From Lingula anatina (lineage: Eukaryota > Animalia > Brachiopoda), in contig CM120641.1 of assembly GCA_051362555.1 (NCBI GenBank), positions 21,452,001-21,516,000 of the forward strand: a stretch of DNA of 64,000 nt, in the 5' to 3' direction. The notes under the pieces are model-generated. The model was not told where the DNA came from. It worked only from the letters and a program-made list of their open reading frames with translations, and made no database searches. Each line of letters begins with the position of its first letter. The first letter of the stretch is position 1. This document shows, piece by piece, positions 657-57,400 of this stretch. The translations under genes and the position numbers were made by a program.

Positions 657-18484
<17,828 letters not shown>

Positions 18485-18986: not shown

Positions 18987-19319
18987 CTGTTTATGTGTGT
19001 AAATAGTAATTCAGAATTCCTGGCAACTGCCGCCTATCCCAAACAAAAAGACGGCATATCATTGGTTAAAATATTTGCAAAAAAAATCACACATGTCAGG
19101 GAAACGCCAAAAGATATCTATATGATACGTACACTGTAGAAAAACGCTTTATTCCTTTTAGTCAATTAAAATTATTGGCAAATTCCAATTTACGATCAAA
19201 CAATCTTCACTAATCTTGAACTTCCTGTTGAATATTGCAACCAATCAGGTGACGTGGTTCAAATAGACTAAGGGAGTTACAAATAAATACATGCAGAGCA
19301 GATGGCTTGAGGGTAGACG
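18987..19319. promoter_or_regulatory. Bidirectional promoter region between DZANK1 (minus) and PET117/SENP8 (plus)
   Basis: The DZANK1 first-exon donor (minus CAG|GTAAGG at about 18987) and the PET117 ATG (19320) are about 330 bp apart, head to head. Motifs: X-box-like GTTGCCAGGAAT (19016-19027, minus), CCAAT (19241), TGACGTGG (19250-19257). Confidence 0.6.
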
Positions 19320-20517
19320 ATGTCGTCAACAGCATCTAGGTTTTTTCTTGCGGGCGCCATATCTTTTGCAGTCGGGTGCTCTATTTTTGTTTATTTTTCG
19401 GAATCAGAAGCTAAAGCAGTGAGTCAATGAATTACACCTTTAAGGAAATAGACTTTACATATATCAGCAAACTAAGCTTTTCGGTACAACTAGTATTACC
19501 AGTAGTAGTACTTATGCAACCATTGGCATCTATATCACCTGACCATGTGTCTCCAAAACACATTATACATATATAGTTATACATGTAACTTTTTTGTAAG
19601 ACTAGTCATGGATTTTCGATATTTTTCAATATTTATTTATGTGGTGACTTTAGTTCCTTCTGCTATTCAAATTAGTTTTTCAAATTTATTATTCTATATT
19701 ACCTCTGAAATGATCCCCTCTTTCTTGACTTTTGAACATAAAATAAAACGACAATTGGCTTTTCAAACTTTTTCATTTGAATATTAGAAGTTTTGACGAA
19801 AGTCATCTTGAATTTCCCCTGGCATGTGAACATCTAACATAACATAACATCTAACAAAGGAGACTTGTACTTTTTAGAGACACGTGTATAACGTACTGCA
19901 TACTTAAAAATTTTTTTGGGGGGGGGGGGGGGAAGAGAACTTAATAAAAAAAAGCTATGCAGGCCTATTAACCTATATGTCAAAGGCAGGGATGTTTTAG
20001 AACAACTGCACTGATTTGGCATAGAGCTTAGACCAAATTTCTTAATTTAGGATAACAGATCTATTCAAGTGACAGTACTTAAGTCGTCATGTTTTGCTCA
20101 TTTCTAGAGAAGAAAAGCAGGTCCCCTGAGAGATTTGGAGAGGCAGAATCGAAAAAAACAAAATATTGTGGCATTACAGGAACAGCGAAAGTTGCAGGCA
20201 AAGTTAGAGAGGGCATCACAGGAACAACAGGCATGTATAGAATACATTTGTGAGCCACAATGTGTAGCTACAATATTCTGCACCTGTAAAGGAGAGGGGG
20301 CTAGGGGGGAAATGATTTTATTATTTGCAAACACCATGTTTGATGTGTGTGCAAATTAGTTCAGTATGAAAATAGGATTGTAACAAAATTATTGAATGAA
20401 ACTTCGACATCTTTTATCTTAAAAGGCATTAACAAATGCTTTGAAGTTTTGTTTAAGGTGTGTCAAATCAATTTTTTGTCATGTTTTCAATTATTTACTT
20501 TTTAGGATAACAAGTAA
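19320..20517 (+). CDS. PET117: PET117 cytochrome c oxidase assembly factor homologue (about 77 aa, 3 exons)
   Basis: Exons 19320-19418 (GCA|gtgagt), 20108-20230 (ttctag|AGA...CAG|gcatgt) and 20506-20517 give MSSTASRFFLAGAISFAVGCSIFVYFSESEAKA-RRKAGPLRDLERQNRKKQNIVALQEQRKLQAKLERASQEQQ-DNK*. This matches PET117 (human MSRSSKVVLGLSVLLTAATVAGVH...RLRDGVIRDIERQIRKKENIRLLGEQ). The last junction is less certain. Confidence 0.88.
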
Positions 20518-20527
20518 ATGACTTGGG

Positions 20528-21187
20528 ATGAAAAGAATGGCAAGTCAAGGAGACATGGTGTTGAGTTTTCATGACAGTTTGCTCAGGACGAGTGATGTGG
20601 ACACTTTGGTGCCTGGAAACTGGCTGAATGATAACATTATTGCATTTGCTTTTGAATATTTTGAAAAAGTACAATTCAAGTTGCATGAAAAGGATGTGTC
20701 ATTTATCAGCCCAGATGTTACCCAGTTTATTAAACTTAATTGTGGTGATGAACTTGGGATATTTTTAGAGCCGTTGTGCTTGACATCCAAGAAGTACATT
20801 TTCTTGGTTGTTAATGATGAGAGTTCAGCAGCTAGAGCTGGAGGATCACACTGGAGTTTATTAATGTTTTCAAGACCAGAAAATACTTTTTACCACTACG
20901 ATTCTTGTAACAAATCCAATAGTAAATCTGCGAAAGTTGTTGCTATGTCTATAGAAATATTTCTCAGGGCAACTAGAAAAGTACAGTTTAAAAATGAAGA
21001 AAGTCCACAACAGGAAAATACTTGTGACTGTGGAATGTATGCAATTTGCAACACAGAGCTTTTGTGTAAGAAACATTTAGATGAAGATGAAGTGGATTTA
21101 TTTAATACTATTACACCAGAGTATGTGACTAAAAAGAGACAAGAGATGGTGAATCTGATTCATAAATTGGCAAGCACCTCTAAATGA
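20528..21187 (+). CDS. SENP8: Sentrin-specific protease 8 / NEDD8-specific protease 1 (DEN1), single coding exon
   Basis: VLSFHDSLLRTSDV...WLNDNIIAFAFEY, catalytic His in GGSHWSLL, Asp in HYDS and Cys in QQENTCDCGMY are typical of SENP8. The start may be 20537 (MASQGD). AATAAA signals follow at about 21217, 21423 and 21456. Confidence 0.95.
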   Translation: MKRMASQGDMVLSFHDSLLRTSDVDTLVPGNWLNDNIIAFAFEYFEKVQFKLHEKDVSFISPDVTQFIKLNCGDELGIFLEPLCLTSKKYIFLVVNDESSAARAGGSHWSLLMFSRPENTFYHYDSCNKSNSKSAKVVAMSIEIFLRATRKVQFKNEESPQQENTCDCGMYAICNTELLCKKHLDEDEVDLFNTITPEYVTKKRQEMVNLIHKLASTSK

Positions 21188-21860
21188 CATCCACAGATGA
21201 ACATTTGATTAATGCAAATAAAAACATTAAAGTACAACCCTGGCAATGAAACATACAAAATAATGGAAGAGTTTTCAGACAAAAATTTATCAATATTTCT
21301 TCAGCCCATTTTCAATAGTTATTTAAATGTCTAGGGTTTGGGGCAATTTGCTAGTTCATAAGATGATGCTCAATGTCATTTTTTCTTCATCTATATTTTC
21401 GAAGTCAAATATTGACAACCTAAATAAAAAGTGCTCTTATATTGAAAAACCTTGCAATAAAAGTACAATATTGCTGGTGTCAGAATGTCAGCACTTTTTA
21501 TCAATACTCAAAATATGAATAACAGAAATAATGTCTTAAAGAAACAATAAACATGTTTATGAAAATATGAATATTAGAAATGTGACATAATGTAATTTGA
21601 TCATTTGAGTGAATTCCGAATATAATTTTAACAGTCATTAATAAGTTGGTCTTGAAGAAGTACAAGTGTTCAGAATTGAATTTGCATAGTAAATAAACGT
21701 AGTCTAGCTTAGCTCTACATTATATTGCCCTTCTCCTTTGTATTTCCTGGCAAGTTGGAGAAAACCTGTGAAGTTATCTATTGATGCCAGGCATGTTATT
21801 CAGGTAAAATTGGTCTAGTGCAGAAAAGGGTCCATATGCAAACTGAATTCAATACATATA

Positions 21861-22407
21861 TACCCCGTTCACACTACGCTCAGTTATCCGGATAAGTTGC
21901 GAATTAGGTCACAATTCGAATAAATGCAGTAGTGTGAACGCAAGAGGATTTTGAAAATGCGCATTTTCAAAATCCTGCAAGCGAGGTGGATTTCTAAGCG
22001 CGATCCGGATAACTTACCGGAATCGACACCTGTACAGATCTTACTGCGCATGTGTGCAGATAAGTGCGGGTATCTATGAACGCTGGTTTATTACTTTAGC
22101 GATTGCACCAAACGTATTTGGAGGTCACCACTCACTACAACATGAGGAAACAAACTTATTTTGCCACCTTGTACTTCTCAAGAATGCTGGAATGTCTTTT
22201 GAGTTGCATTTGCCGTCACAAATTTTTGTTGATATTTTAAGATTTCCTGTGCGGCGCATGCGCGAGTGTTCAAAACAGGAAGTTAAACCTGAAATTTTCA
22301 ACGTGGGATTCGGATTCGCTTAGCGAGTGTGAACGCAATACCGAATCGGATTCCTTAAGAAAAATCCGAATTATAGAAATGCGCATTTTGGCAACTGTAG
22401 TGGGGTA
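21861..22407. mobile_element. PIF/Harbinger-like MITE between the convergent SENP8 and hydratase 3' ends
   Basis: Begins TACCCCGTTCACACTA and ends TAGTGGGGTA (partly deleted TIR), with ATA on both sides. CpG-rich relative to its flanks; internal GTGTGAACGCAA repeats and the palindrome GGATTTTGAAAATGCGCATTTTCAAAATCC. Confidence 0.7.
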
Positions 22408-22464: not shown

Positions 22465-23838
22465 TTACTTTTTCCACTTTCGTGTTCCCATGTCTCTTTC
22501 TTTGACAGCTTGTTTGAAACCCACTTGGTTGGTCCTCTCTTGGAAAGCGACACCTTCTGGGCTGTGTCTGGTCATCCCATCAAATACCGAAGCAAGCCTC
22601 TGTGAAGCAAACAATCCCATTTGTTCAACAGCTTGATTAATAACTTGTTTTTGAAAAAACAACTGGTTAGTTGGGACAGACTTAATTCTGTCTACAAAGT
22701 TATTAACAGTGTCATCAAGTTTATCTGCTTGTACGCTTTTTCCAACTAATCCAATTTTTTCGGCTTCTACTCCATTTATAAGATCCCCTGTAAAAAGCAT
22801 ATATTTTGCTTTCTCTAGCCCAATTCTGTAAACCCACATAGCTGTGGTGGGGCATCCCCACACTCTAGCAGGGGGGTAGCCTATTACTGCATCATCTGCC
22901 ATAAAGATATTATCACAACACAATGCAATGTCACTACCGCCTGCAATTGCATACTTCTCAATTTTACAAACAACAGGTTTCAGACTTCTCCATAATGACA
23001 TGAAGGCAAATGTGCACTCTGACATGAGTGAAAAGTCCAGATAAGGATCCCAAGGCATGGTTTGACTAAAAGGTGTGGTTCCACGCTCTGGTTCTGCAAA
23101 TATCTTCAAATCATATCCTGAGCAGAACACTCCATCCTTCCCAGACAACACCAGTACCTATATTAAAGTTTTAAAAAATTTATTATTAATATTCAAAGTA
23201 ACAGTAACGTATTCAAAATGTCAATTTTTATCCATAAACCTTCCCAATCAAGACCAGTTTCATTAAGTTTAAAGAAATTAAGTTAACTTTATGAATAATA
23301 ATTTAACTGAAAATTTTCTAATTTTAATACCATGTACTAGTATTACTCTCTTACTTTGAAATTGAATTTGATTTTCAGCTGATAAGTATTTTTGCAATAC
23401 AAACATTTTATTTGGATTTTCAATAAAAATGCTCTTTCTGTAAAATAAATTCATAGAAATACGAGACATGCAGATGCCACGTCATACGTGTATGCCTAAT
23501 CATTGCAATGACCTTGAAAGCTAACTAAAGACTCAACAACATACATATTTCCAGACACATGTTTATACCTTTACATTCTCATCCCAATTTGCCAGTTTCA
23601 CAGCATCTTGAATTTCCCCAGGCATGTGCATATCTATAGCATTCAAAACATGTGGTCGATTCAACTGAATGTGGGCAACCTCATCCTTTACATCATAAGC
23701 AACACTTTTAAATGAATCTGGATCAATTTTGTTTGAACTGTGGAAATATTTCATTGCATTTCCTAGCACTGTTTGATGTTTTAACCACAAGGGTATTTCC
23801 CTTCTCTGCCTTCTCAAGCATCTGGCAGCCAAGAACAT
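22465..23838 (-). CDS. Enoyl-CoA hydratase/crotonase family protein, bacterial PRK08272-like subfamily, about 320 aa, 2 coding exons, probable mitochondrial presequence
   Basis: Exons 23569-23838 (MFLAARCLRRQRR...IQLNRPHVLNAID...DENVK) and 22465-23157 (VLVLSGKDGVFCSGYDL...AIAGGSDIALCCD...IGYPPARVWGCPT...), joined by a phase-0 GT-AG intron. Crotonase oxyanion-hole motifs FCSGYDL and AIAGG are present. Confidence 0.9.
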
Positions 23839-24574
23839 GGTGAAATCTATCTTGTAGTCCAAGCAAATGCAGGTGTTTACAGTGGATCCCTAAATGTTGT
23901 CCCCGTAGCCAGTGCAGTGCCTGCCTGGTATATGCTGTACCTGTTCAAAACATTTCCAGGTAAACAACAATTCGGGCACTGGGTCAGAAATGAATGACTC
24001 CTTAAAACAATTACTTTGAATTTGTTATCACAAATGACAATGTTAGTGTTTTTGTACAGTAAATAGAGATAATTTGAATGGATTTATTAATGCAGATTGT
24101 ATATTTACTTGGTTTCCACTGGAAGCAATAATCCTTTCACTCACCTGTCCAGCATTGTCAATTAGAACACATTTTTCAAAATAATACCAGTATATAAACT
24201 GTTGGTATTCAATTCTGTTATTATTTAAAATTAATTAAATAATTTACATGCGTGTCCACTTCACGTACATGTACATGTATACATGCTTTCTTATTTTAGA
24301 TTATTAGTTATCCAGTGGGAACGACAAAAATATGAGTTCTTCTTTATTAATGACTGTTTCCGTACCCTATCAAGGCCACAGCTAGAATAAGACGACTCCC
24401 GTTTACATACTAATTCACATACATGTAATCATCAAAACCAGCAATATTACTCTTCTGTACGTACAAATTATAATCTAAATTTCCCCGCCATTCCCTCTTC
24501 CTCCCCCTTCTGTTTTGTGGTGCTTCCTACATTGTTTTTTCGTCTTAGTCTTTCCATCCCCCTATATAACTTAC

Positions 24575-24803
24575 ACGGTATTTTTCAATGAATACGTTCA
24601 AAACAGAAACCTGATAAACCAAAACCACTTTCGTGCGACGGGACTCGTTGACTCGTGAGACAACAAGAAGTGATACCTGGATTGGTATCGAGGCCTTACT
24701 GTGGATAAATGATATCTCGCTATGACGCTCGAGAAGTAGTGAAAACGAGGTTAAATCATGATCTGAGGCCAGCACGTTAGAGTAAGTGTAATTATTAGAG
24801 AAA
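24575..24803. promoter_or_regulatory. Probable bidirectional promoter of the hydratase (minus) and YLPM1 (plus)
   Basis: Minus-strand donor-like sites at about 24575 (CGT|GTAAGT) and 24145 (CAG|GTGAGT) suggest 5'UTR exons of the hydratase. A locally CpG-rich stretch lies directly upstream of the YLPM1 ATG. Confidence 0.45.
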
Positions 24804-27800
24804 ATGTTTCCCGGTTGGCAACAATGGGGTCAAAACATGACCGGGGTGAATCCTGCTATGGCCAACGTCCAGCCACAGATGCAGATCGGAAGTTTTCCTC
24901 AACAAATGTACTGGGGGTACCAGCAACCTCAGCATCAACAATGGCCAGGGACACAGCCGCCAATGGCATCTGCCGGTGGAGCGCCCGGTCTCTTGGGATT
25001 TGGACCTCCCGGACATCAACTGAATATACAGCCAGGACAACAGGGTATTCCTGGATATGGTGGCATGACACCAGCACCCCCTGTTGAGCCTCCGAAGGAA
25101 GAAAAGCCCCCACTCCCCCCAGAGCCCCAAGCACCAGAACCTCCTCCACCACCAGCTCCTGAAGGGGAAGAGGTAAGATTTTATTATCTCTGTAAAGTCT
25201 GCAGATTATATATTTGCTTGTCTAGTTGAGTAATAATGGTGACTTGAAGTAATATTCCCATCCAAATGCTTTTTTCACACAGAAGCAAGTTTAACAAAGA
25301 GAACTTAAAATTATCACTAATGTTAATAACTGAGATTGCCCAGGGTTTCATTTTGTATCTCCTAACTTCAATCTTATGTTACAATTTGTTTTATACATTT
25401 TCATTTAAGTGAAACAAAACTTTCTTCTTGTAAAACTAGCACACATGTTTTATCAATATTTTCATTTTCCTTTATAGAATCTAGGTCCAAAAGATTCAAG
25501 AGAGGCAGAGAAGTTAACCAATTTACAACAGCAAGCTCAGCAGTGGCAAAAACAGAAGCAGTGGGAAGAATATACACAAAGCTGGTACTCCTATCAGCAA
25601 CAGATGCAGCAGTATATGCAAAGTTAGTTTCATCATTACAATACACTGTATAATGCTTGTGTATGTGGCATGAGTTGAATGTTCTGTTGTGTGACTGCAA
25701 TACTTTGATTGCTCTTGTCTTTTCAAATACACAATAATTTGAGGGACTAAATGTTTGTTGCAAAATTAGGGCCTGTGGGTACTGTTGTTTTTTATGGTTT
25801 CTTAAAGTGAGACAATATAGTGAGGTTTTATTCAGTCAGTCTTCTATCAATATTCATCTTTGTACTAAATATGCTTTTCGTTGGATTGGTATATTTTATA
25901 ATTTTCATTATTACTTTTTAAAGACCACACAATGGATGACATACTAAAAGAAGAGCAGGAATTCAACCAACAATATAAAGATTGGAAGCAGCAGTATGAG
26001 GATTGGAAGGAACAAAACAAAAGTATTGATTTACAATAGAAATTTATAACAATAATTGTTTTTCTTGATTGCATATTTTTATACAACATAGAAAATAGTG
26101 TGTTGACACTGATAATGCTTTGATAATGATTCAAAATTGTTGATTTCAATAATCTTTTTTATTTTTTTATCTACTTATTTATTTATTTATTTATTGCAAC
26201 AAAAGAAAAAGATCTTAGTGAACAGGTGTCTGTATGAGTAAACATGTATTTAATAGTATTAAATGATTGCTTTTTGATCAGATCACCCGAACCAAGAACA
26301 GTATCAGCAATATGCCAATCAGTGGAAGGAATATGAACAACAAATGGAAGAAAAACGTCAGGAGATTGGACAGAGGAAAGAATATTTTGAGCAACACCAG
26401 GGAGCTCAAAAAGGTGAACCTGGAATGCAACCAGGTCAAGTACCACCAGGTCAAGGTCACCCAGGTCAAGGTCAGTTCAATCAAGGACCCCCACAGGGAG
26501 ATGGCCAGGGACCTCCTCCAACTCCTAATCAATTGCAGAATCAAGGTAGATTCCCTGGACCAGGAAATGAAAGATTTACGGGGCCACGCCCCCAGGAAGG
26601 GAGGGGTTTAGGGCCTAGAGGACCACGCTTTGATGGCCCTAGAGGAAGAGGAAACAAGTTTGGTGGCCCTGGAAACAGATTTGATGGCCCAAGGGGAAGA
26701 GGCAGGGGTCAAGACCAGACAAGATTTGGTCCTCCCCAGCAGCAGGGAGGTCCTAGGTTCCAAGCACCACAGCAAGGACAGCAACAGAGGTTTCCTCCTT
26801 CAGGGCAGCAGCAGAGGTTTCAAAGTCCAAATGAACAACAGAATTCTGATGCTAATTTTGATGATCAAATGGACATTGAGGATGAGAATGAGACGCAAAA
26901 TGATGTAAATCAGTCTGGTTTAGGACAGTTTCAGCATTCTCAGGGTCCTCAGGACCAGCATATGTTTAGAGGTCCTGGACAGCAGGGGCCTAGAGGTCCA
27001 AGGGGTCCAGGCATGCAGGGACCAAGAGGACCTGCTGGACCAAGGGGCCCTCAACAGCAAAGACCACGTGGGCCTTCACAGTTGGGGCCTAGAGGACCTG
27101 TTCAACAAGGGCCTAGAGGCGCCATCAAACAAGGACCAAGGGGTCCTAACCAGGAAGGCCCAAGAGGCCCTAGAGATCCTACTCAACAAAGTCAAAGAGG
27201 CCCTAGGCCTAGGGGACCTGGTCAACAAATGTCCACTAGGCCAGGGGCGCCAGGGCCTAGAGGACGTTTTGAGATGGGCAACAAAGGTCCGAGATTTAGT
27301 GCTCCAGGAGGACCTAGATTCCAGAATGCTAATCAGATTAGTGCAAGTCCTGCTGAAACACAGAATACCAAAGGTGCTGCACAGCAGGCACCATCAGGGG
27401 TGGTTTCTCTCTTGGACTTAACATTTGATGAATCAAAAATGAAGGCATTAAATAAGAAAAATGTAGGTAGTGAACAGCAGAATTTAAGTGAAGGAGGACA
27501 GCCTCAGAGATCTGGTCCCCCTGGCAGAGGGCCAGGTGACAACCAGCAAAATAGAGCGCCACAAGGTGGACAAGGAAATACACAGACTGGCACTGTACAA
27601 CAGAGGCCCAACCAAAATCAAAAAAATCTAAACCAGTCTGATTCTCAGGGGCAAAACGAAAATAAGTCAGAAATGACGAAGTCTAAGGATAGCACTGTGA
27701 AGAATGGGTTAGTTTTGCATAGAGTATTTACCATTTTTCAGTGTAATTTACTGCACAGATTGTATTGTTTTTAGTTTATTTCTTCAATACTAGTGATGTG

Positions 27801-30800
27801 CATTGATATTGTAAAACTCATTTTTCTCTGCCATTGTTACTGCTTGCATATTTGCTGTATACTTATTAACCAATGTCTTATTTTACAGGTCTGGAGGAGC
27901 AAATCCTGTGGCTGCTACTGGTGTAGAGGTTCCAAAGGTATCTTCATTTTAAGTTATAGTATTATTTAACTGTGGCACAGTGTTAAAGAGGCATCTAGAA
28001 CTCAGTACAAGCATGTTTTTCTAGTTCTGTAAATTCTCCCACAATATGAAAAATTATGTCAAAAAGCTGGGGTGATGCTAGCTTTTTTTTTTTTAGTTTA
28101 GTTATAAATTACTACTTTTTCATCACTTTTTTCTCCAAATGGTTTAAATTTGACTAAAATAAGTCAAGTTAACCCTTTTTTGTTTAGCCAATAGTCAGTT
28201 TTAGCATTTGGCTAAATTGGCCAGTGTTAGAGCTACCCCAGTAAGTGTCCTTTTTAATGAACAATGTCAGTAATATAACCATTCATTCTGGACTTTAATA
28301 CATCTATAATTTTTTTGCTTATAGAAATTAAAGTCTGTTCTAAAATTAATTGTTGTGACTATTTTCAGTTGTCTCTCTCAGAAGAGCAGCATGCATTAAT
28401 CAGGAAGGCTGCAGAAGAGATCCAGTTGAAGGGCCTTTCAGGTATCACCACTTTTGTAGGTGGAGCCTCTGCACAGGATGATGCACATTCCTCTGACCTG
28501 GCTGATTTACCTTATGCTGGAGATAGGAATGTAAGTTGGAGGTTATTATTAATAAATTGTGAAGAATTAAAAATATCCTTTGACCAGTTTGTATATAAGT
28601 TTTATTTTGATTCTCTTTTGAAATGATCTCAGTAAATGTCTTGCTCTGCAAACTCTTTTTTATGTAAACTGACTTATTTTGATTGAATTCTTGTATGATG
28701 CAAATCATTTTGGCACTTCAGATCACAGAAAAAGGTTTTGGTGCTTCATACCGCTATGATGATGTTCCTGGCAGATATGAGGTTCAAGTCAATTTTGCTT
28801 TGATGTATTATGATGAGCTTCAGTTGAAAACTCAGAAAACTCATTCAAACTCGGAGACATTTCTCTCTTTACTTAGATTTAGTATAATTGGTTTAAGTTC
28901 TAGTTAGATAGTTACATGTATGTGGTTTAAAAACCCAGAATTTGTAAGTCTGTAATGACAGTTCTTGGTAAGACATAAGGTAGTGCAGTTACATCAGTAA
29001 AAACTGCATTCTTCATATTGGCCCTTATACCTTTAAACTTGATAAATTTACATTATTTCATTTATTTACTTTTGATTTTTGCAGGATGAAAGGCATGGTT
29101 ACTTACCGCCAAGAGACTTACCAGAAGACATATATCGGAGACCACCTGGGAGGGATCCTTATGAAGACGACTTATATGGTCGTCCCCGGTTACCTCCTCC
29201 TCCCCATGATCCTTTGTTCGATGACTTGAGAAGAGATCCTTATGATAGGAGAGGCCCACTATACGATCCATTAGGACCTCCAAGGGGAAGGTACATTCTC
29301 CTTGAACTTTAAACATTATCTCAATATCCATCAGTAACATATGATTTAGGAACACTGTGAGAATTACGTCATTATATTGATAGCAAAAAAAAAAATTTTT
29401 CTGGTTATTTCAACACTTTCCCTAAATCACCAAGGTACACCTTATACAAAACGGTTCTCAGAAGTCTAATCAATAAACCCATATCTGAATTTAAAGAAGC
29501 TAGTCTCTGAGTCTTGTTATGGTTATAGAATTGACTGGATGCATTAAAGGTTAGAAATTTAGCACTCCAAAATGGATTTATGGATCATCATGTTCTCAAC
29601 AGGTTCTCAGGTGCTAAAATTTTGATTTAATTCATGGCTATGTAAATTTCTTATGTATGTTTCATGCTTTTATCTTAGTGTATTTGTTCTCAAATTATCA
29701 TTATAAAGGAAATCTTTATTGTGTTTTATCTCAGTGGAGATGAAAAAAGTACATTGAATAAACTGGTCCTATTGACCAGGTGTACATGATTCTTTTGAAA
29801 GTGTTGGGCTGAAAATACCTTTAACCTCTGTGTTTGCCTTTCAGAGAATTTGATAGACTCTTGCCACCTCCACCAACAAGGGACAGATTGCTCTATGATG
29901 AGTACAGATACAGAGATCCATACAGGTATTCTCCACTGCCACGTCCACCACCAACTAGAGGTAAGATATGACGTGTGATGCTATATTTACTTTGATTTTA
30001 TTCCTTTTGGTCAGAACAGTTTCATTTTTTTTATTCTGTACATTCCCAAGACTCTGCTCAGTGTGCTTAAAACTTCTAAATTTTGACCCAGTGCATAATT
30101 GATCTTTCTGTTGTAACATTTAACAATTATGTGAGGTTAATTAACTTTTTCAGAAGGAGACACACTATTATAAGTAAAGGGTTTCTTGTCCTTCTTGATT
30201 GTGTAAAATGACAAGAACAGACATGACTATGTAACTGTGTTTACTCTAGGGCTTTGGTTTCTATTTTTTGATAACCAGATGTCTTTGTCAGTCTATTATT
30301 TTTTTGCACAACCTGATATAATGTTTTTTATCCTTTACACCATCAGGTTATGGTTATCTCCCAGCACCCCCTCCTCTGCCTCCTCTGGCACCCAGGTCTG
30401 CTCCAGAAGTTATTGACTATGGGCATCAAGGCTCTGTAATGAAAGAAAAAGGTAAGAGATTGATTATATAATCCATAATGTAAGTTATATTTACCACAGT
30501 GTTTGCAAGAGTCCTTTTTTTTTTTTTTTTTTTTTTTGTAATAGAAGTATTATATATATATATATATAATTTTTTTTTTGTAATGGAAGTATTATAGAAA
30601 TATCATGTAAAATAGTGTGAATCAATATATAAAGTTGTTGATTTTTGACATATAATTAATTTTAATTCACTTATTTTGCAATTTCCTTGCCAATTGGCAT
30701 TATTGTATTATAACCTTTGGGCTTATTTACTATTCTTTCGTATTTCTACAGAAAAGGAAATAATAGACTATGGCCATGGGAGTGGTAGTGGAAGCAGCAC

Positions 30801-33800
30801 TGCTGTGGATGATTATTTTTCCAAGGAGCTTATAAGAGAGAGAGGTATGGACTAGTCTACTGAGATAAGATACAAAAATAAATTAGGTTGATAATTTTGA
30901 ACATGATTCTGCTCTATATATTGCTATAATATTTTACAGATTATATTAAATTTTAGTTTTGCAAAGTCTATATGAAAAAAAAAAACTTGAAAATTATTTA
31001 TTGTTCTCTAATTTATAAAGGACTCTGTGCAATAGAAATAAAGATTATGAAAAAATGCCTATTTTTTGTTCTTTGTAGATGACCCTTACTATAATAGGCC
31101 ATTAGATGATCGGTTGTCCAGAGATATTGACCGGGGCAGGCCCAGGGAGAGAAGTAGAAGTCGAGAAAGAGACTGGGACAGACTACGAGATAGGGACAGA
31201 GAGAGAGACAGAGGAAGAGAAAGGAGCAGGGAGAGGGATAGGAGTAGGGAGAGAGAGAGAATCAGAGATATTGACAGAGGCAGAGATATTGATAGAAGTA
31301 GAGATCGGGATAGGTACACAAGAGACAGGTAAGATCTGACTTGGCTATCTGTCTGCATATATGCAATCGGGTAATATTTTTATTACTTTTGTTCTACCAC
31401 TTCTCTGTGAACAATGTAGTGATGACAGATTACATAATCTTTTTTTTAGAATTTCTTAATGAAATGAAGTTTCTCTTTCCAATTTTGTGAAAGAGATTAA
31501 CATCATGCAAAAATAGTGTAAATACTTTGTACAGGTAGAAACCCAGAAATGTACATTATCACTTGTTCAGTGTTGTATTTGCCTACAATTACTCTTCTAT
31601 CCTGTGAATTGCTGAATGATGCATATATTAATTATATTATGATAACATTTAATGAAAAGTATATATTTGGACAGGCATGCAGCAAGCTTGAGACCACCAA
31701 GGGATCCCTATCCTGCTCCAGGCGAAAGAAGTACTTCTTATGGTCACCATTCTTCACCTGTACCCCATAGCGTAAGAGATGAACCAAAGCCAGAGACAGT
31801 GAACATCATCGATATACTGTATAACCCCGGCAGAAAGACCAGACCTGCTAATATTGTTATTATCCTGCGAGGTCTGCCAGGGTCTGGGAAGACCTATATC
31901 AGCAAATTGATCAGGGTAAAGATTTTACCATCTTCCAGTGCATGAATTGTTAATGTTCTCAGTCAAAAGGTTTGTGGCTGTGATTGTCCTTTGTCAATCT
32001 AGGTCACAGTTTATTAAGTCTCAAACGCTTGGGCTCTTTGAGTGCTTTGTTTGCTGTGTGTGTGTGTATAATAGAAGTATTCAGTTTTATTCATTTTGTA
32101 CTATTTAGCTGGGTATCCTGTGGTTAGTAGGTATTGCTTTTCATTTTTAAAGGATATTGATCTGAATGCAAAGTTGGTTCTGAAAATATAGATATTTTTA
32201 GAGAGTCTAAAACCAGTTGAGCCAAAAGATGTATAATTTTTTAACTCCACTGAATATGACAGATTGGTATGTTTTTACATAGGACAAAGAAACTGCCCAT
32301 GGAGGCCATGCTCCAAGACTACTGAACCTGGATGACTATTTCATGGTGGAAGTTGAGAAGACAGAGAAGGATCCAGAAACAGGCAAGAGAGTCAAAGTAA
32401 AGGTAAGAGGGTTTTTTTTCCAGAAAATTAAAGATGCTTTGTTATTCAGATATTTTTATGGTTCACATATTGATTGCTCTACTATTGAGTGGTTCCTACC
32501 TTGCCTTTAATCTTTGCCTCCTTCATAATTGATATTTTGTTTAAGTCTGATATTTTTTTAATTATATTTGCCATGGCTTCATCTCTATATCTTAGGTGAT
32601 GGAGTATGAATATGAGCCAGAATTGGAGGAAAGCTACAGGCAGAGTTTGTTAAAGAGTTTCAAGAAGACCATAGATGATGGATTTTTCCCATTCATTATT
32701 GTTGATGCTGTAAATGATAGAATCCGATATTTTGAAGAATTTTGGAGTTATGCCAAGTCAAAAGGGTTTCAGGTAAGATATTTTTTCATTCCTTTTTCAT
32801 TCTAATCACAGAAAATATGGTACAGAAAAAAATAACACATTGATTGTTGATACTGTTATGTTTTTTTTTTTTTTTAAGAAACGTATGTTTGATTCTTACT
32901 TTAAAAAATAACCTTTTTATTTTGTTTTTCAGGTGTATATAGCTAGAATAGAAGGTGATGTTGCAACATGTGCCAAGCGGAACACATACAACAGAACACA
33001 AAAAGAGATACAAAAGGTTTTACAGGATTTTTCTCACTACTAAATCACTACTAAGTTATACATAAAATTAATACCAAGTGCTTTTGGTGCCAGAAGTTAT
33101 TTTACCCTTTTTTAACTTAAAACATCTTCTTTTCTTTTAATTTTAACATATAACAGTCAAATTCATATAACAGTCAAATTCTGAAGACCAAGATATTGAT
33201 TAAGTGAAAATGCCCAAATAATTCAAAACTTATACATGGAATTTAACAAATGTTATCCTTTTTTCTATGGACAGCAGGATAGCATTGTAATCTCCTTCAG
33301 GTTTAGGTAAAGCTTTTGATAAGTGTATTTTTGTATGTTTAAGCTTCTGGACAGATGGGAAAAGACACCTTCTCACTTTCTCAGGCTCGATGTCAGACCA
33401 CTGCTTCAAGAAGGATCCATTCAAGAGGTGAGGTGGAAAATATTTCATTCTATCTGATAAAGTAATTTTTGCCTCGCTAATTACAGAAGAAAAGTAATTT
33501 CTCAAATGTTTTTTCAAATAGACATGTTTTGACTGTAGCAAAGATATCATTATTTGAGCATAAAACACAAACTGTTGAAATTACTGAAATTTCGTTCAGG
33601 TCGAAATGGAAGATTTTAGTGAAGAAACAACCAGATCTGATGTTGCATCACAAAAGAAGGAGGAAGAAGAGGAGGAAGAGGAAGTTTCAGGGGTATGCCT
33701 TTTGCCAAATACTGCAACATTATCTCTCTCAGGCAGGGTAGCCATGTATTCCCAGCCTGTCTTTCCATGAGGTAGAGAAGTTTGTGTATGCCATGGCTCA

Positions 33801-48400: not shown

Positions 48401-51400
48401 CCTGCACATTGCCCATTTAGGCTTCATGCAAATGAATTGCTCTATCGCCATTTTGACCTATTTTTCTGGTCAGTGAAGGCTGTGTATATTTCATTGGGAA
48501 TCTTAAAGCTCAAAAATGACCATTTTTCTGGATGCTGCGGCCTCTTGACTAGTAGAAAGAATACCAAGAGATGCCTTACAAGTAGGTGAAGTTTGTTATT
48601 TGTAGATACCGGTGTTACTGTGAGCGTGAGTATGAAGAGGGTAAAGGTTCCCGCAAAGAGGTTATGACGTAAATATCATAGAGAGGAGAACGTGAGTTGT
48701 GGTGCAGTAAAGTGAGTCATTGCTCCAACTGATTTGATGAGAACACATTCCACTTTTTAAAGCTTCAATTCACATCGGAAGTTATACCCAGTTATCATGT
48801 GCCGCTCAGTGGTTAAAGCACGTCACAACAACCACGAAGACCTTGACATAGAATATTTTGCTGGAAAATCAGAGAAAACCAATCAGGATCAGGAAGCCAA
48901 CTCATCCGTTAAAAGGTTAAAAACACTGTTTCTCAAGTTATTTCTTTTAACATTGAGTAACCTAGGTGTCTGACATATATCTAAGTTATCCAGAATATAA
49001 ATCTGTTTGCATAATGTTTTTAATTTCCTGGTCTTGAAATTGAAAGTATTGGGATCCAAACCCTCCATCTTCAGAAACTTTGGAGTTACCACCAAGCCTG
49101 CAGGGAAAATGAATACCTTGTTCAGGTTTCTTATAGCTTTATAGTTTAAGTAACTTTGAAATTATTGTTATGTATGTTTGGTGGCTTTAAGTGGTAGTCA
49201 CTGATCTAAACTATTTTGTTTGTATATGGTTTCTGTATAAGTTATTATGTTGTAGTGATTTTACGTTTTTCCAGTGTATTGTGGGTGTATTGAGCAGTAT
49301 TGCAGTTTAGTAAATTTTGATGTTTTCAGAATGGGAAATTAAGTGTTATTAAGCATTTATTAATGAGAATTGATGGGACGAAACAGTAAAGCAGGCATTG
49401 AAGGAGATACTACAGAGAAATTTGAGAAAGAATTTTTATCATTACTTATTTTAAAGGTTGTAGAGGATACAAATATGAAACAAGTGGTTGTTCCATAGGA
49501 TATATTCCCATTTTGACTTACTTGTAGAGTTTGAAGTATTCATAGTTTTAAAGAAAAAAAGTTGTTTCAAAAGTTTTAACTTGTGTTTCGTAGTTATTGC
49601 TGCTTAAAACCGACAAAATTGTCCAAAAATTGACATTCACAATGACTTTATTTCTTATCTGTTTATTGGGTATGAATAAAAGCATTTACGGCAAATTATT
49701 GATTCTGTTTTATTTATGATGGTTTTCATTGCAGTAAAATCTTAAATGTACATATTTATTATGTATTTCTTACTGGTGTCTATATCCTGAAAGTCAAAAT
49801 GTGTTCAATTCTTGACTTTTTAAAATATATTTTTGATAAGTTTTTTTTTTAAAGTTGTATTGGTACATTGCTTAACTTTGGTTCATTACATATTTTCAGG
49901 GACCCAGGCAGAAGAAAAGAAAAATCACGTAATGCAGCTCGCGAACGTAGGGGAAAGGAAGCTGAGGTGTTTTCTGATTTGACCAATGAAATCCCACTGC
50001 CCCAGAATGCCACTGCTCAGCTGGACAAAGCCTCCATAATGAGGATCTCCATTGCTTACCTGAAACTCAGGTCTTTAATGGAGCAAGGTACATTTTTTTT
50101 GTTCTAATTGCAGTTGCAACATATTTTTACCTGGTGTTGACTAGTCCCATTCCAGTGCTCTCATTATCTTTTATCCAAATAGCCAAATGTTTACTAGAAA
50201 AAACCTTTTTTTTTTTTTTCAAAATATTTAATATCACATTTAATTGTGCATGCTAGTATTACCTTTGGGTGGACTTCTCAGCTTGGTTAATGTTAAAAAG
50301 GGGAAGTCAACTTTAACAAAAAGCAGGACCCTAATATTTACTTGTAAAAGACAACAACTAGACCCCTTCTGTGTTATAAAAAAAATTTGAATTTAAGCGA
50401 AGCATTGTGAAAAGTGGCCCTTAGAAGTATTTTTAAAATGCTCGACATTTTTTTTTCCTCTTGGCATGGGGCAAACATAAACATTGTGGCCATTGACGTA
50501 ATTGTTACCATTTCGGCAAATGGAGGTCATAAACAACATTTCAAAAGATCACAAATTTCTTTAAGTCCATATTGATTTTATCTGGAAGTAAAAAGATTTT
50601 TAGAAATTACTGTTTCTGCCCAATGGTCTAATAATGGCTTGGGTGAAAGTAATTGCCATAAGGAAGAGTAGAAGAATGTGACAATAATGACAAAAATGTA
50701 AATATTTACTAGATATTAAATATAAGTAATGTTTTATACATGTTCTACCTTCATATTGTATTGGTGTTGAGAAGTGGATTATTTAATTACTAGTACTGAT
50801 CTATTATAATTCAGAGAAGCCTTTGAAGTATAAAAAACATTTTTATATATTTTTCTAAAATATATATAGTTGTAGACACAACTTTTCTGTGAATTTTGAA
50901 ATGATTGAGATTACCATGGCATGGCAAAGTTTAATTTATTTCACATATTTTCATTACCTATGCATAGTGTATGAATATTTTGCTTGATCCCTTTTGAAAT
51001 TAATTAAATTTGGATAATTCCTAACCTCAGTCAAGAAAACCCACAGAAACAGATTTTATGCCTTAGAATTGAATCTAGTGTATCTGTTAGTGTTTATGAA
51101 GGATTGATGTACTCAAAAAAACATGCCTCTAGGCAATATATTGATTAATGCGTATAACTGTTACTATATTTATTAGTAAGAGAAATGACAGCTTCTATTT
51201 ATTTCTGAACGTGACAGCGCTGTATCTCTTAGTTTGATCACTTCTTCAGGAAACTAACATATTGAATTACAGACAAGGTGTGTCTGTGTGTGTGTGGCTT
51301 AATTATTTCAATAAGGGTAAATCGCAATAAGGATATAGATGGAGTACATTTACTTTTCAAATAACCTGAATAACCTTGAAAAATGGACTTTGGATCATGG

Positions 51401-54400
51401 CTAATCTTATAGTGAACTCGATGAAAACCCGGCAAGTAGAGGTGCCCAGCAGACCAGTTAACTAAAGAAATGTAATGATTCTGCACTTAATAGTCACTAA
51501 TGGACACATTCCAAATGTTCCTATATCATGTATATAGGAGCAGATGGTTTTGAGCCTTAAATGTGACTGCCTTGCAAATCTCTGAGGTCAGTACATACGT
51601 ACTGAAGGAGTCCCATCAAACCAATATCAGCAAGAGTTAATAAAATATCTGAATTACTTGTGAAAGTATTAATGAACTGATGGCAATTGTCTCAGTTGTC
51701 TTGTGATAGATATTGACAATTTGCCAGATGAGAATAATGAATGAAATAAGGGAATGTAGTCTGTCCTGACTTCAAGGGTAAGCAGTTACTTGAAGGTCAC
51801 ATTGCCGTTAAAATATGCCAAGGCTAGTCACATTTGGCTTCCTTATTTTGAATCAGCTTCTGGTGTAGGAGTTAAACTATGCCACTCATTACAGTTCTGG
51901 GTACAATAATTTGAATATGTAAGCTCCAGCCCCCCAGAAAAAGTCCCAAAATGGTTTCTGTGAGCCTTTTGTATTCAATATTTGGTGTAGATAATAATAA
52001 GGTCATTAATACTGTACAATATCGGATAAGTCACGTAGGCAAAATTGTGTTAGATGGGGCTGTTCAGAATCGGCCTGGGTGAACATTGTACATTTTCCTT
52101 ATTCACCCATCATTTGAATAACAATTAATGTTTTTCTTATATCTCATCTTCTTGAAAAGTGACAATATTATACTTCATTAATTTTTTTTCCTTGAAAGAT
52201 CTTAAGGAAAATTGGTTTTTCAAGGAGGAAATGGGATTGGGGTGGATACAGACTGAATGGATGAAATGTTTAACATGTAGTTGTCATAGCAATTACATCT
52301 ATATTTAATACCTTGTATAACAGATCTTAGTGCCATGGCACTATATTTGCCAATGCTGAGGCCTTGAAAATCAGGGTTATCTTAATCTTTATTTCAAATT
52401 CACGCATTTAATAAAAGCATATACTTGTTAATTTTAACGAAAAAAACTTGGATGTTAATATCTGAGAAAAGAAGATTTACCATAATAAGTATGCTGATTA
52501 GAATAGAAAGATATGATTTTCCTTTACCTGTATTCTAGGAGCTAAACCAGAGCCCCCAAGAAATGCCCTGGAGAAGAAAGCGGATCAATTATTCATGAAG
52601 GCTTTAGAGGGGTTTCTGATGGTTATTTCCAAGGAAGGTGACTTGGTGTATTTGTCTGAGACTGTCACCAAGTATTTGGGGCTATCAAATGTAAGTTTAT
52701 CAAGATTCATTAATTTTTTTTTTTTAATATATCAATTTAGTTTTTTTTTTTTTTAAGATGAAGGGTCATCATCTTTATTTAACTCAAGTAAATCATTTTT
52801 CTAGTATATTTACTAGGTGCACTATTGCTCCATTTCTTTTTTAAATTTGATTAGTTTTATTAGTAATTGAGTAAAATTATAAATGGAAAATTATGAATTA
52901 ATTAGTTGGCAGGATGCCTGTACCTTACTGTTTGCTATCCTCAAGTAAAAAAAAAATCAATATATTAATGTTAAATGAAGTAATAACTGGCTGTACGTTG
53001 AATTATTGCTTTGTTTCATTATTGAATATCTAAGATGTTTCATTCGGCATTTCTGAACCTGTGTAAATGCCTCAAGCACACAAAAATATCATTATTCTTT
53101 CTAATCTGTCTGTATTTTTGTCTGAAGAGGCAATATTACTGTAAAGATAGTACACAAGTTATATGAAGTGGGTATTAACCTGTAGGTATTACCAGGTCTC
53201 CTTAATATATCATTTTTACGCATCAGGTATATATGTTAAGTGTGTCTGTAACAGCAGGAAGCCTTTTTATTAGGACCCTGGGTTTATGGCATTTGGAAGC
53301 ATGTCTTCTGTCATGATTTGTGGTACATGATTCACGAATGTTTTGTCAGTTGTGTTTTTGGAAAAGGGAAATTTGTTCAACAAAGATGTTTTACTTGTAA
53401 AGGAATGCAAATACCATATGATGAAAGATTTGCAAGAGCCAAATATTCTTCTTGTTGGTAGTTAGCTCTTGTGGATACTCAATATTAGGGATATGATACT
53501 GGCATTTCCATGATGGAAGACTAGAGCTAAGCAGAAAATTGAAAAAAAAAAAGTTAAAGTAATAATGCAAAAGTCACATTGTTATTGCCAGTTACACAGG
53601 ATATCATGTATGTGGAAGTTGCAGAAGTCTAAATATAATGCCCAGCTTATAACCCAGCTGTGAGGAGAATAATGTACCAAAAATTTTCAGACAAGTACTT
53701 ACATTCAGAACTTGACAAAAAGTGTGTGCCTTTGTTTTTTTACATTTTAGTACTTGGATATGTTGATCTTTCTAATTAATTTCACAGAAACTGTTTCTCT
53801 GCATGGGTATAAGTGCTAAGTAAGAACATCTGTTCTTAGTTGTCACTATTGGCAATACTATATAAATTAGCACAATGTTAAACTAGTGCTTTATACTTTG
53901 TCAGCATGAAATAGATGTCTTTTAAGAAAGCCCTCACTATCTGGAATAGACATCTAAACTTACGCTGAAAGTATTGTAAGACTCTCCAGGTACCTCAACA
54001 GGTGATTTGGTTGAAGCACGTTTAGACTGTCAAATAAGGTTCAGCTGTTTGACATTGCCAGGCTTCAGGTTTGGTGTGCCCTCTAAGCTTGCTGTAAGGA
54101 TTGATTGCAGCTGTACAGAAGTGGGATACTGCTTGGCTGGCAACTTTTTAATTTAAACAAACAAGTCAATATACTACAAATATACAGCACTGAGTTTGTG
54201 GTTTATTTTTTCCAAGTGTGATTATGCCCAAGTTTTTTTTCTTTCCTTTTTTATGTAATGTGACATTAAAAAGCAGGATATATGGTGGATCTAGGTGAAA
54301 GACGTCCACAGTATAGGCCATAAATCTCAACAACAACTGGTTTTCAGTGTGTGTAAACCCTAAAAAAGAATTATAGCCTGGTGATACTTTCTCTTGATAA

Positions 54401-57400
54401 ATTGTTTACATTTTTCAAAATGTCAAATGTGGCTTGGGTGGAGATTAAAACATGAAATGTATAAAAAATGTTTAAAACAGACGTTTAAATTAATCAGACA
54501 TTTAAAGTTAAGGATTTATATTAAGTTTTATCCAAAATTTTTCCTCCTCCAAGAAATAATCCATGTACAGAAAAGAGACCGACTTTGCTTATAGTTCTTT
54601 GTAGTATTACAGATATGTATCATGAAATTGTGTTCCTAATCATTTGATCTCTGGGCTAGATTGTGAGAATTTTTTTCTGAAGGTTTCATGCTCCATGAAA
54701 ATTGTATTCAAAGGTAATCTGTGCACATTTGAAAATACCCCATAGTAATATTCTGATGTTTAGACAATTATTCTGCAAAGCTGACTTATTTTTCCCAGTC
54801 CAAACCTAAAGCAATATCACCCATCAAGTAAAAGATCCTGAATTTGATATTTCCTTCTCAAGTTATTTAATAAAAAAAAAGGACAAAATGTCAAATCCAA
54901 GCAATTTACAAAATAAATACTTGTTAGGCAAAATATTATTAAAGTTTTGCCATAAATCATTTTCTAATTGAAATAAGAAGTTGTTTACAAGGATCAGTAA
55001 ACTTGAAGTTACTTAGGCCTTAATGGTGTATATGAAGAAAATTGTGGTTTTGGAAATTATCCAGGATAGTGTCTGCGTGAAACCTCTGAAAAAAAATGCA
55101 AGTGTTTAGACGTCTGCGGTAAACCTGTCAGATCAGATTATGTGTGAACACTTCATTTTTTTGTTTGTTTTAGCATGCAGAAAAACTGATTTTTAAGAAT
55201 TTCTTCTAAAACTTTTCTTCAAATTATTGGAAAACTGTTTCTTGCATTGGAACACAATTGAAATTTGAAGCCGAACATGAAACCAGGTTTATTTGTTTTG
55301 TCGTTTTACACAAATTTGCTGGGGTCTCTTTTTTTTACCAGGAAATTAAGAAAAAAGAACATTGAACTAAAATATTGACACATTTGTTAAAGGGAAGTTT
55401 AATTGCTAGGCTATATATTGGAACTCCTGCAACATGTACTGAAGTGGCAGGACCACCTAAAGAACAAATTCATTTTAAGGTCTTTCTGCGTGTCTTCTTG
55501 CACGTAAAAGTCTGCACCATTGACTACAGGGAGCGGGCATAGAACAAAATTTAAACTAATGTCTGGCTTTCGTGTCAAGGAGGGGATGCAATATTCTCTC
55601 CTTCTTCCTGTCCATCAGAACAACTTTTATTGGAAAACTTAGTTTGGAGACTTTCTTCTGTATTGTGTATGATGGAGGATAAAATATTTGGTAAAACCAT
55701 TGTAGTTCAATTTGAAAGCTCTCTTTAGCACATATATCTCCATAAATAATTAACAGAAAGAAATGATAAATGTTGTCCTTAGTTTTTGAACATAAATCAT
55801 TTTGACATTTTGCAAAATATAATACTTGAACATGAGAGGTCTGCTTCATGTTGTCGCATTGATAAAGTAGACTGAGAAACCTCCATCTGCTTATAATATG
55901 TCAGCTCAGACAAGACTTTGAGGGGGACCAGCTGTCTCATAAAGCTCCCTTGCAAAAAAAAAAAAAACAACTACCCCATGAAGCTCATCACTGTAAGACA
56001 CAATTATATGACTTATAGAATACATTGTAATTTTTTTTTCAAACTGCGTCATCATGGATTTTCTATGGAATTTAGCAAGAAACATAATACCCATGACATA
56101 CACAAGGCTGTCAAATCAAACGAAAAAGGAGAAAAGTTGATAAAGTTGCGATGATTGATGAAAACGCGATGGACAACTACCTTTCTTTGCAATCAAGCCA
56201 TGTAGAATTCAATAAAGCTATCAGTAAACTGGATTTGAGGACAGGGTACTTAAAATGCCTTTAAGTCCCTAAAGAATTACATATACATATCTACTCTGTA
56301 TTTTGTGAAGATAATACCAGGCTATATGTTAGGTATAACTAACACATATGTAATGATCATATTCTTAAGTAATTGTGAACCTGCTAATTTAAGCATTACT
56401 AACTGAAGTAATGCATAAACTGTTCATTGCTTGAAATTTAAGTTATGATAGTGCCAATAATTTAATACAATTCAATACAATATATCATAATTTTTATTTC
56501 CCTTAGGTTTTTATTGTAACAATGGTCATTAGATTGATTGATTATTGTTATCTTGATTACATTCACCAAAGTAGTTGATTTTTTGTGTGTATTTTGTAGT
56601 GAAACATTTGTTAATATTTTCAAGGTGTATTTTAAACAGAACATAATAAGAAAGACGCTTAAAGTATTATTTTTATTGTAAATCATGAATTAAATTAATC
56701 TATATAGTAATTATTTTGTTATCATATGGTGAAAGTTCTAGGCTAAGGCTAGGGAAAATTTTTTTAGCATAATCAAAATGCTGAGCTAAATCTATTAATT
56801 TTGTGAAAAATAATAGTATACTTTATATTTTCTAAAGCCATCTAATCTAGAAAATGTTCAGCATTTAGCAAAACTTTACCATTTGAAAGTTTTTTCAGGT
56901 GTGGGCATCAGTTTTTGATTGACAACTTGCATCATCTTTTTCTCTACAGGTTGACTTCATTGGGCACAGCCTTTTTGACTTCACACACCCATGTGACCAT
57001 GAAGAAATGAGGGAAATGCTCCTCCCAAATTGCCATCACCTTAAGAACCCCATGGACAAACGCATTTTCTTCATGCGTATGAAATGCACATTAACAAGAA
57101 ATGGCCGAAATGTCAACCTGAAGTCAGCAACGTACAAGGTAAATGGAAACATGAAGTTTATGAATTACGAATTCATGGCTTTTCCTAACAATTTCAAGTT
57201 TATGGCCAAAAAAAAAATTATATTTGCTGATATGTCAATGAAATGAAATATTTAATTTTTGCCAGCTTTCTGTTAATATCCTTAAAATATTCAAATTTGC
57301 TTAACAATTTAGTTGCTTGTTTAGATGAATTGTGCTTGTGTATAGTTAAAAAAGACTTTTTTGATAATTGTTGCCCAAATTAGTTAAAAGATATTCATAT

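Follow-up and report, generated by a model that had tools for sequence, protein, structure and literature searches.

The window, by which we mean the entire 64,000-nt stretch of Lingula anatina DNA that was analysed, carries on its + strand the three coding exons of a PET117 gene, and a SENP8 gene follows directly in the same orientation. The RNA reads support the presence of PET117 and the complete SENP8 frame on one mature, spliced, three-exon mRNA in Lingula. The features on which the description relies are as follows.

1709 to 18484, − strand: DZANK1-like gene with Fn3_assoc, double zinc ribbon and ankyrin exons (Pfam matches)
19241 to 19255, + strand: CCAAT box (19241-19245) and TGACGT element (19250-19255), read from the sequence
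19293 to 19319, + strand: short 5′ leader, delimited by read 5′ ends at ~19293-19320, with a two-codon uORF at ATG 19302
19320 to 19418, + strand: PET117 coding exon 1, 99 nt, 33 codons with a hydrophobic N-terminal segment, seen in RNA depth
19419 to 20107, + strand: intron 1, GT-AG, 689 nt, phase 0, its joint seen in 311 reads from all eight runs
20108 to 20230, + strand: PET117 coding exon 2, 123 nt, 41 charged codons, matching PF15786
20231 to 20505, + strand: intron 2, GC-AG, 275 nt, its joint seen in 105 reads from all eight runs
20506 to 20517, + strand: last three codons of PET117 and its TAA, inside the last exon
20513 to 20518, + strand: variant poly(A) signal AGTAAA overlapping the PET117 stop (ATTAAA in runs X7 and X8)
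20518 to 20574, + strand: weak-context ATG with an 18-codon ORF, right after the PET117 stop and in the PET117 frame, overlapping the SENP8 start
20537 to 21187, + strand: SENP8 (NEDP1, DEN1), intronless, 216 aa from ATG 20537 (A at −3, G at +4)
21217 to 21222, + strand: first canonical AATAAA after SENP8, with others at 21423 and 21456

Nine RNA runs with the same species label were listed, of which eight (X1-X8, from three studies) were aligned, using ~6% or 25% of each run, and X9 was left out. The junctions 19418>20108 and 20230>20506, which the earlier note had named beforehand as a check on its reading, were found in all eight runs, with 65, 73, 107, 25, 23, 2, 9, and 7 reads for the former and 19, 21, 26, 14, 7, 2, 4, and 12 reads for the latter in X1 to X8, respectively. 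The second joint was aligned as 20228>20504, a three-base slide, and the GC-AG reading 20230>20506 fits; the GC donor of intron 2 is a point absent from the earlier note. In every run, at least one read over this joint has a shorter side of 41-74 nt and extends to 20544-20577, beyond ATG 20537. Single molecules therefore hold PET117 exon 2, the PET117 stop and the SENP8 ATG at 20537, as expected from the shared mRNA that had been proposed. The mRNA structure was assembled from such short joint-spanning reads, and the two start codons are linked via overlap rather than by single reads. No other joint was listed in the eight runs, and exon 2 joins only exon 1 on its upstream side. The RNA derives from the + strand in the six stranded runs. 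A separate SENP8 transcription start at 20230-20500 had been named as an observation that would speak against a shared mRNA; all six stranded runs have no sense coverage within intron 2, and six reads with two starts (depth 2-4) lie there in X8, whose library looks unstranded.

The three PET117 exons join into a 77-codon ORF that ends at TAA 20515-20517. The proposed comparison of the 77-aa peptide with the Pfam PET117 model placed exon 2 alone above the cut-off of PF15786 (28.8 bits against 27, E = 1.4e-6, profile positions 32-65); exon 1 matches weakly (positions 1-26, 15 bits, E = 0.027). The architecture also agrees with that of the human gene, with 77 codons and an exon 1 of 99 nt in Lingula compared with 81 aa and 96 nt in human, both followed by a phase-0 intron. 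Human PET117 has a mitochondrial location and a role in complex IV assembly (PMC3334569, PMC5429353). By its sequence, the Lingula ORF is a PET117 family member, for which a mitochondrial complex IV role is predicted. A search of proteins of 73-2000 aa with exon 2 did not return Lingula PET117 or any true relative; none of its 12 candidates scored. The gene thus seems to be unannotated in that collection. This agrees with the expectation that gene predictors would miss PET117, since Lingula SENP8 is present and PET117 is absent in the protein collections searched. Because of this absence, where PET117 seems lost from invertebrate gene sets, incomplete annotation may be the reason. The lone match of exon 2 in a search of 1.84 billion sequences was a UPF0193 protein, which we took to be a chance match.

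The SENP8 ORF matches Pfam Peptidase_C48 (E = 2e-15) and, in the PDB, the human SENP8 structure 2bkq (E = 4e-63) far better than SENP1 (4e-5). The catalytic triad (His105, Asp122, Cys165), Gln159 (oxyanion), Trp29 and Trp106 are invariant in 25 sequences. An NCBI protein of Lingula anatina, with 219 aa and annotated from ATG 20528, shares 99% identity with the ORF, and this was the single Lingula SENP8 protein found in the collections searched. The earlier note had called the product a cullin deneddylase; the SENP8 identity holds, and the word cullin is loose, because SENP8 acts mainly on non-cullin substrates according to 10.1101/2020.03.20.999326. The PET117 TAA, a TGA in the SENP8 frame (20519-20521) and ATG 20528 all lie where they had been reported, ATG 20528 being 10 nt and ATG 20537 19 nt past the PET117 stop. 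ATG 20528 is probably not the SENP8 start. It reads ATA in 9 of 9 reads of X7 and 23 of 23 reads of X8, and the N-termini of homologues match a start at 20537. SENP8 therefore likely starts at ATG 20537, with ATG 20528 being polymorphic.

Variants in the RNA reads were compared with the reading frames. All five listed variants in PET117 exon 2 are synonymous. Over the whole of PET117, 6 of the 10 listed codon changes are synonymous, compared with 22% synonymous sites (the list of the batch of X1, X4, X7 and X8 holds 40 of 88 variants), and the corresponding figures for SENP8 are 7 of 15 and 19%. Both ORFs look constrained from their family conservation and from the synonymous excess in this small, partial list of variants.

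On the upstream side, PET117 stands head-to-head with the DZANK1-like gene, and their start codons are ~840 nt apart. The domain architecture of this divergent neighbour suggests that it is DZANK1-like. The CCAAT box and TGACGT element likely form part of a putative promoter shared by the two genes. No RNA depth was found at 19001-19200 in four runs, and the sense depth at 19201-19300 is 0 in X1, X4, X7 and X8. In X2, seven molecules end at 19315, and five variant-allele reads of X3 extend to ~19293. The leader is accordingly short, as indicated by the read 5′ ends at ~19293-19320. The depth in X2 is 30 at 19315 versus 53 at 19370, which indicates that many exon 1 molecules include the PET117 AUG. 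Over exon 1 the depth climbs more slowly (0.57-0.58) than would be expected from a single start at 19310 (0.70-0.74), leaving room for starts downstream of this AUG. No pile-up of 5′ ends was listed inside exon 1 or exon 2. The leader allele of the five X3 reads differs in 19296-19310 by an apparent 4-nt insertion, which would turn the two-codon uORF at ATG 19302 into a longer uORF overlapping the PET117 start.

At the 3′ side, the reported absence of AATAAA between the two ORFs was borne out. The first exonic AATAAA, at 21217, likely marks the end of the long mRNA. The depth in X1 drops after 21200, in part confounded by a divergent 3′ haplotype. Poly(A) tails were seen neither at the PET117 stop nor at the far end in the RNA reads. 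In most P1/P2 runs, depth over the PET117 exons is 3-6 times that over SENP8, which means that the two-ORF mRNA may be a minority. In a toy model with one long mRNA, the 5′ peak is 1.4-1.6-fold and the joint ratio is 1.5-1.6, compared with 4.8-5.4-fold and 3.5-4.1 observed in X2 and X3. Adding a short isoform and a loss of tail-bearing reads brought the model closer to the data, with the dips at 20571-20670 left unexplained; depth dips in raw-read coverage are not findings by themselves. In X3 only, 10 molecules begin at 20554, at a CA followed by a GU-rich stretch. We lean slightly towards the existence of an extra short PET117-only mRNA, a candidate isoform that would end at ~20530-20555 via AGTAAA. 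Such an isoform would leave the structure of the SENP8 mRNA unchanged. Of 159 dicistronic loci in flies, 69 are described as mixed type, with one cistron also being monocistronic (PMC4528330).

We consider it probable that one promoter gives rise to the three-exon PET117-SENP8 mRNA, with both proteins likely made and SENP8 likely produced via leaky scanning past the cap-near PET117 start. Translation of both ORFs from the same mRNA molecule is predicted, and leaky scanning would be the best-fitting mechanism. The PET117 AUG has A at −3 and T at +4; its context is moderate and not plainly weak because of the A at −3. With a leader of ~5-30 nt and this moderate context, part of the scanning subunits would pass the PET117 start. 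They would then meet the weak AUG at 20518, the polymorphic AUG at 20528 and finally the strong AUG at 20537, and SENP8 would be made by these ribosomes. There is no AUG inside the PET117 frame (0 in 231 nt), and none of 17 tiles from other long ORFs of the window is free of AUG. The probability of an AUG-free PET117 frame is 0.005 under base shuffling, 0.076 under dinucleotide shuffling and 0.65 under synonymous recoding, so we regard the absence of AUG as a permissive state and not as proof of selection. When a stop codon lies in the last exon, there is no downstream exon junction to mark it as premature. The PET117 stop lies in the last exon with no exon junction downstream, and the mRNA would therefore escape junction-dependent decay. 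Short leaders, a weak first AUG and few upstream AUGs are described as marks of leaky-scanning bicistrons in algae (PMC11892635).

An unlikely alternative is that the locus produces two functionally monocistronic mRNAs, namely a short polyadenylated PET117 mRNA and a SENP8 mRNA from starts in exon 1 behind the PET117 AUG, in which the PET117 exons would serve as a 5′ UTR. The excess of PET117 depth and the high joint ratio of X2 and X3 relative to the single-isoform model, the AGTAAA/ATTAAA hexamer at the PET117 stop and the slow ramp over exon 1 are compatible with it, as is the usual ending of 5′ monocistronic isoforms of flies at an upstream poly(A) site (PMC4528330). Nevertheless, many reads extend upstream of the PET117 AUG, and neither a pile-up of 5′ ends in exons 1 and 2 nor poly(A) tails were seen in the reads. 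In human, 179 of 195 PET117-KAT14 long reads hold both ORFs (PMC13303939 Dataset EV1). A short isoform by itself does not make the SENP8 mRNA monocistronic. Reinitiation at SENP8 after termination of PET117 10-19 nt upstream, on the same bicistronic mRNA, seems rather improbable to us. The spacer is very short, and the TAA followed by ATG 20518 resembles stop-start sites. However, 77 codons are long for ordinary reinitiation, which is described as rare after long ORFs (PMC5972666), and ribosomes would be diverted by ATG 20518, whose frame differs from that of SENP8. Moreover, the UGGGA core of TURBS is absent from exon 2, the sole nearby UGGGA being behind the PET117 stop, and folding of three segments gave no unusual RNA structure (z = 1.15, 0.97 and −1.16).

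It is most improbable that the locus is an operon whose RNA is separated through spliced-leader trans-splicing at acceptor 20506. Trans-splicing occurs in some animal phyla (PMC12460157), and there is a strong acceptor 31 nt upstream of the SENP8 start; no paper on spliced leaders in brachiopods was found in our literature search. Completion of PET117 requires this acceptor in cis, and the loose read ends at 20504-20506 match only the tail of exon 2, with no foreign leader among them, in all four runs with a complete list. We give next to no credence to a PET117-SENP8 fusion protein arising through readthrough, frameshift or another splice, for which we found no supporting observation. The two frames differ, the SENP8 frame is closed by the TGA at 20519 and only two joints were listed in eight runs, in agreement with the claim that a fusion is impossible. 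A search of longer proteins, a weak test, gave no fused protein.

To consider how SENP8 came to lie behind PET117, 63 SENP8 metagenome loci were surveyed. The reading frame is broken at a GA|GT donor in the codon of Glu40 in 11 of the 63. Six multi-exon loci have common introns near Glu40, Gly70 and Trp106 and, in two of the six, Asp163; Lingula SENP8 has none of these four shared introns. In a tree built by a quick method, in which the Lingula row is not placed firmly, one locus (L048) groups with corals and another (L040) with amphioxus and hemichordates (SH-aLRT 94 and 81). Irregularities in the SENP8 models of annelid, nemertean and hemichordate proteins fit introns at the same places. We therefore somewhat favour the view that a processed, intronless copy of SENP8 ended up behind PET117 and came to use its promoter. 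Intronless SENP8 is also found in an arthropod clade and a fish-like locus, which makes plain intron loss an alternative to retroposition.

The Lingula PET117 peptide was also compared with 7562 six-frame fragments of the surveyed loci, and no PET117 was found upstream of SENP8 (best E = 0.54). PF15786 had no match in 150 fragments, consisting of the 148 ranked highest by charge among 738 from 35 loci and two phmmer matches; only 23 of the 35 loci have more than 430 nt upstream of SENP8, which makes the test a weak one. Other genes occupy this position in several loci. In L020 (853-1515) and L019 (1-171), from a lineage that groups with arthropods, an ANAPC10 ORF ends 18 nt upstream of the SENP8 ATG on the same strand, with neither AATAAA nor ATTAAA between the two and four internal ATGs in 640 nt. 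The pair may constitute a candidate second bicistron, or an operon, with SENP8 downstream. L034 (1-270) has the same ANAPC10-SENP8 order with a longer spacer. A NAD-dependent epimerase lies ~350 nt upstream of SENP8 in L017 (2251-4001), and a weak FUN14 match precedes it in L036 (785-2701), both on the strand of SENP8.

According to Table 1 of PMC4716680, human DZANK1 is located ~0.25 Mb from PET117. Together with the DZANK1-like neighbour in Lingula, this suggests that PET117 stayed in place while its partner changed. A Pfam scan of 148 of the 721 ORF fragments of the window detected no KAT14-like domain. Because human PET117 has another partner, the Lingula pair likely reflects a shared promoter and not a functional tie of complex IV assembly to deneddylation. 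A doubtful but wider proposal would be that PET117 has been a leaky first cistron near DZANK1 since brachiopods and vertebrates last shared an ancestor, lending its promoter and capturing different downstream genes (KAT14 in human, a processed SENP8 in Lingula), with SENP8 having become a second cistron more than once, as behind ANAPC10 in L019 and L020.

The human PET117-KAT14 pair, mentioned in the earlier note, is in print: its entry stands near the top of Dataset EV1 (PMC13303939), where 179 of 195 long reads carry both ORFs and Ribo-seq calls both. Thus, this kind of arrangement is already known. As in the human transcript (ENST00000688188), Lingula PET117 comes first, has a phase-0 intron after codon 32-33, lies near DZANK1 and is followed by a complete unrelated gene. 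In contrast, the Lingula partner is the intronless SENP8 and the human partner is the ten-exon KAT14, and the spacer is 19 nt in Lingula and 303 genomic bases in human. The extra GC-AG intron, which puts the PET117 stop into the exon of the partner, is found in Lingula only. The human pair has Ribo-seq calls, whereas the Lingula pair is known from RNA reads and sequence. [quoted passage not shown] The Lingula SENP8 copy matches the retroposition model given there for STREMI-SLC35A4, with intron loss as the alternative. Unlike the vertebrate "gene symbiosis" pairs formed by retroposition, which have one partner per gene, the present pair is found in a brachiopod and its PET117 has a partner different from that in human. 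Dataset EV6 of PMC13303939 has no PET117, KAT14 or Lingula entry.

The green-algal bicistrons described in PMC11892635 share with Lingula a short leader, few AUGs before ORF 2 and a short spacer. They were tested in vivo and have a weak first AUG, whereas the mechanism in Lingula is predicted and the context of its first AUG is moderate. The mixed-type dicistronic loci of Drosophila (PMC4528330) are similar in that one cistron is possibly also present on a short isoform and the other is only dicistronic. Neither Pet117 nor Den1/CG8493 was found in the text or 11 supplements of PMC4528330, in which a fly PET117 listed by CG number alone would have escaped notice. Our literature search, which covered sources other than subscription journals, found no paper naming both PET117 and SENP8 and none on brachiopod bicistrons. 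The apparently new elements are the suggested partner swap in a distant phylum, the retrocopy-like second gene and the PET117-SENP8 pair itself. The same small gene would stand first on an mRNA for two proteins in both human and a brachiopod, with unrelated partners, which argues that the features of the first gene (short, poor in AUG and with a cap-near start), and not a functional tie, drive such pairs. The Lingula locus may allow the model in which bicistrons are born by retroposition to be examined in an invertebrate. If the wider proposal of PET117 as a long-standing leaky first cistron is true, the partners in animal bicistrons are exchanged, and small mitochondrial genes are hosts that can be used repeatedly and lie concealed in annotated 5′ UTRs.

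Several other features were observed in the window. An intronless rhodopsin-family GPCR gene (6031-7392, + strand) lies within the span of the DZANK1-like gene on the opposite strand. Downstream, an enoyl-CoA hydratase-like gene with one long exon (22468-23889, − strand) is convergent with SENP8. It is followed by a multi-exon gene rich in Gln, Pro and Gly with a weak P-loop kinase match (24767-33767, + strand), which is presumably YLPM1-like, and by a HIF-alpha-type bHLH-PAS gene (49853-60260, + strand). A transcribed repeat with reads on both strands occupies 21860-22400, and the many different loose ends at 21856-21862 indicate that a dispersed element starts there. Over 19301-21400, X7 and X8 have many fixed differences from the window despite the same species label, and they keep both splice joints; these runs come from a diverged population or a cryptic species.
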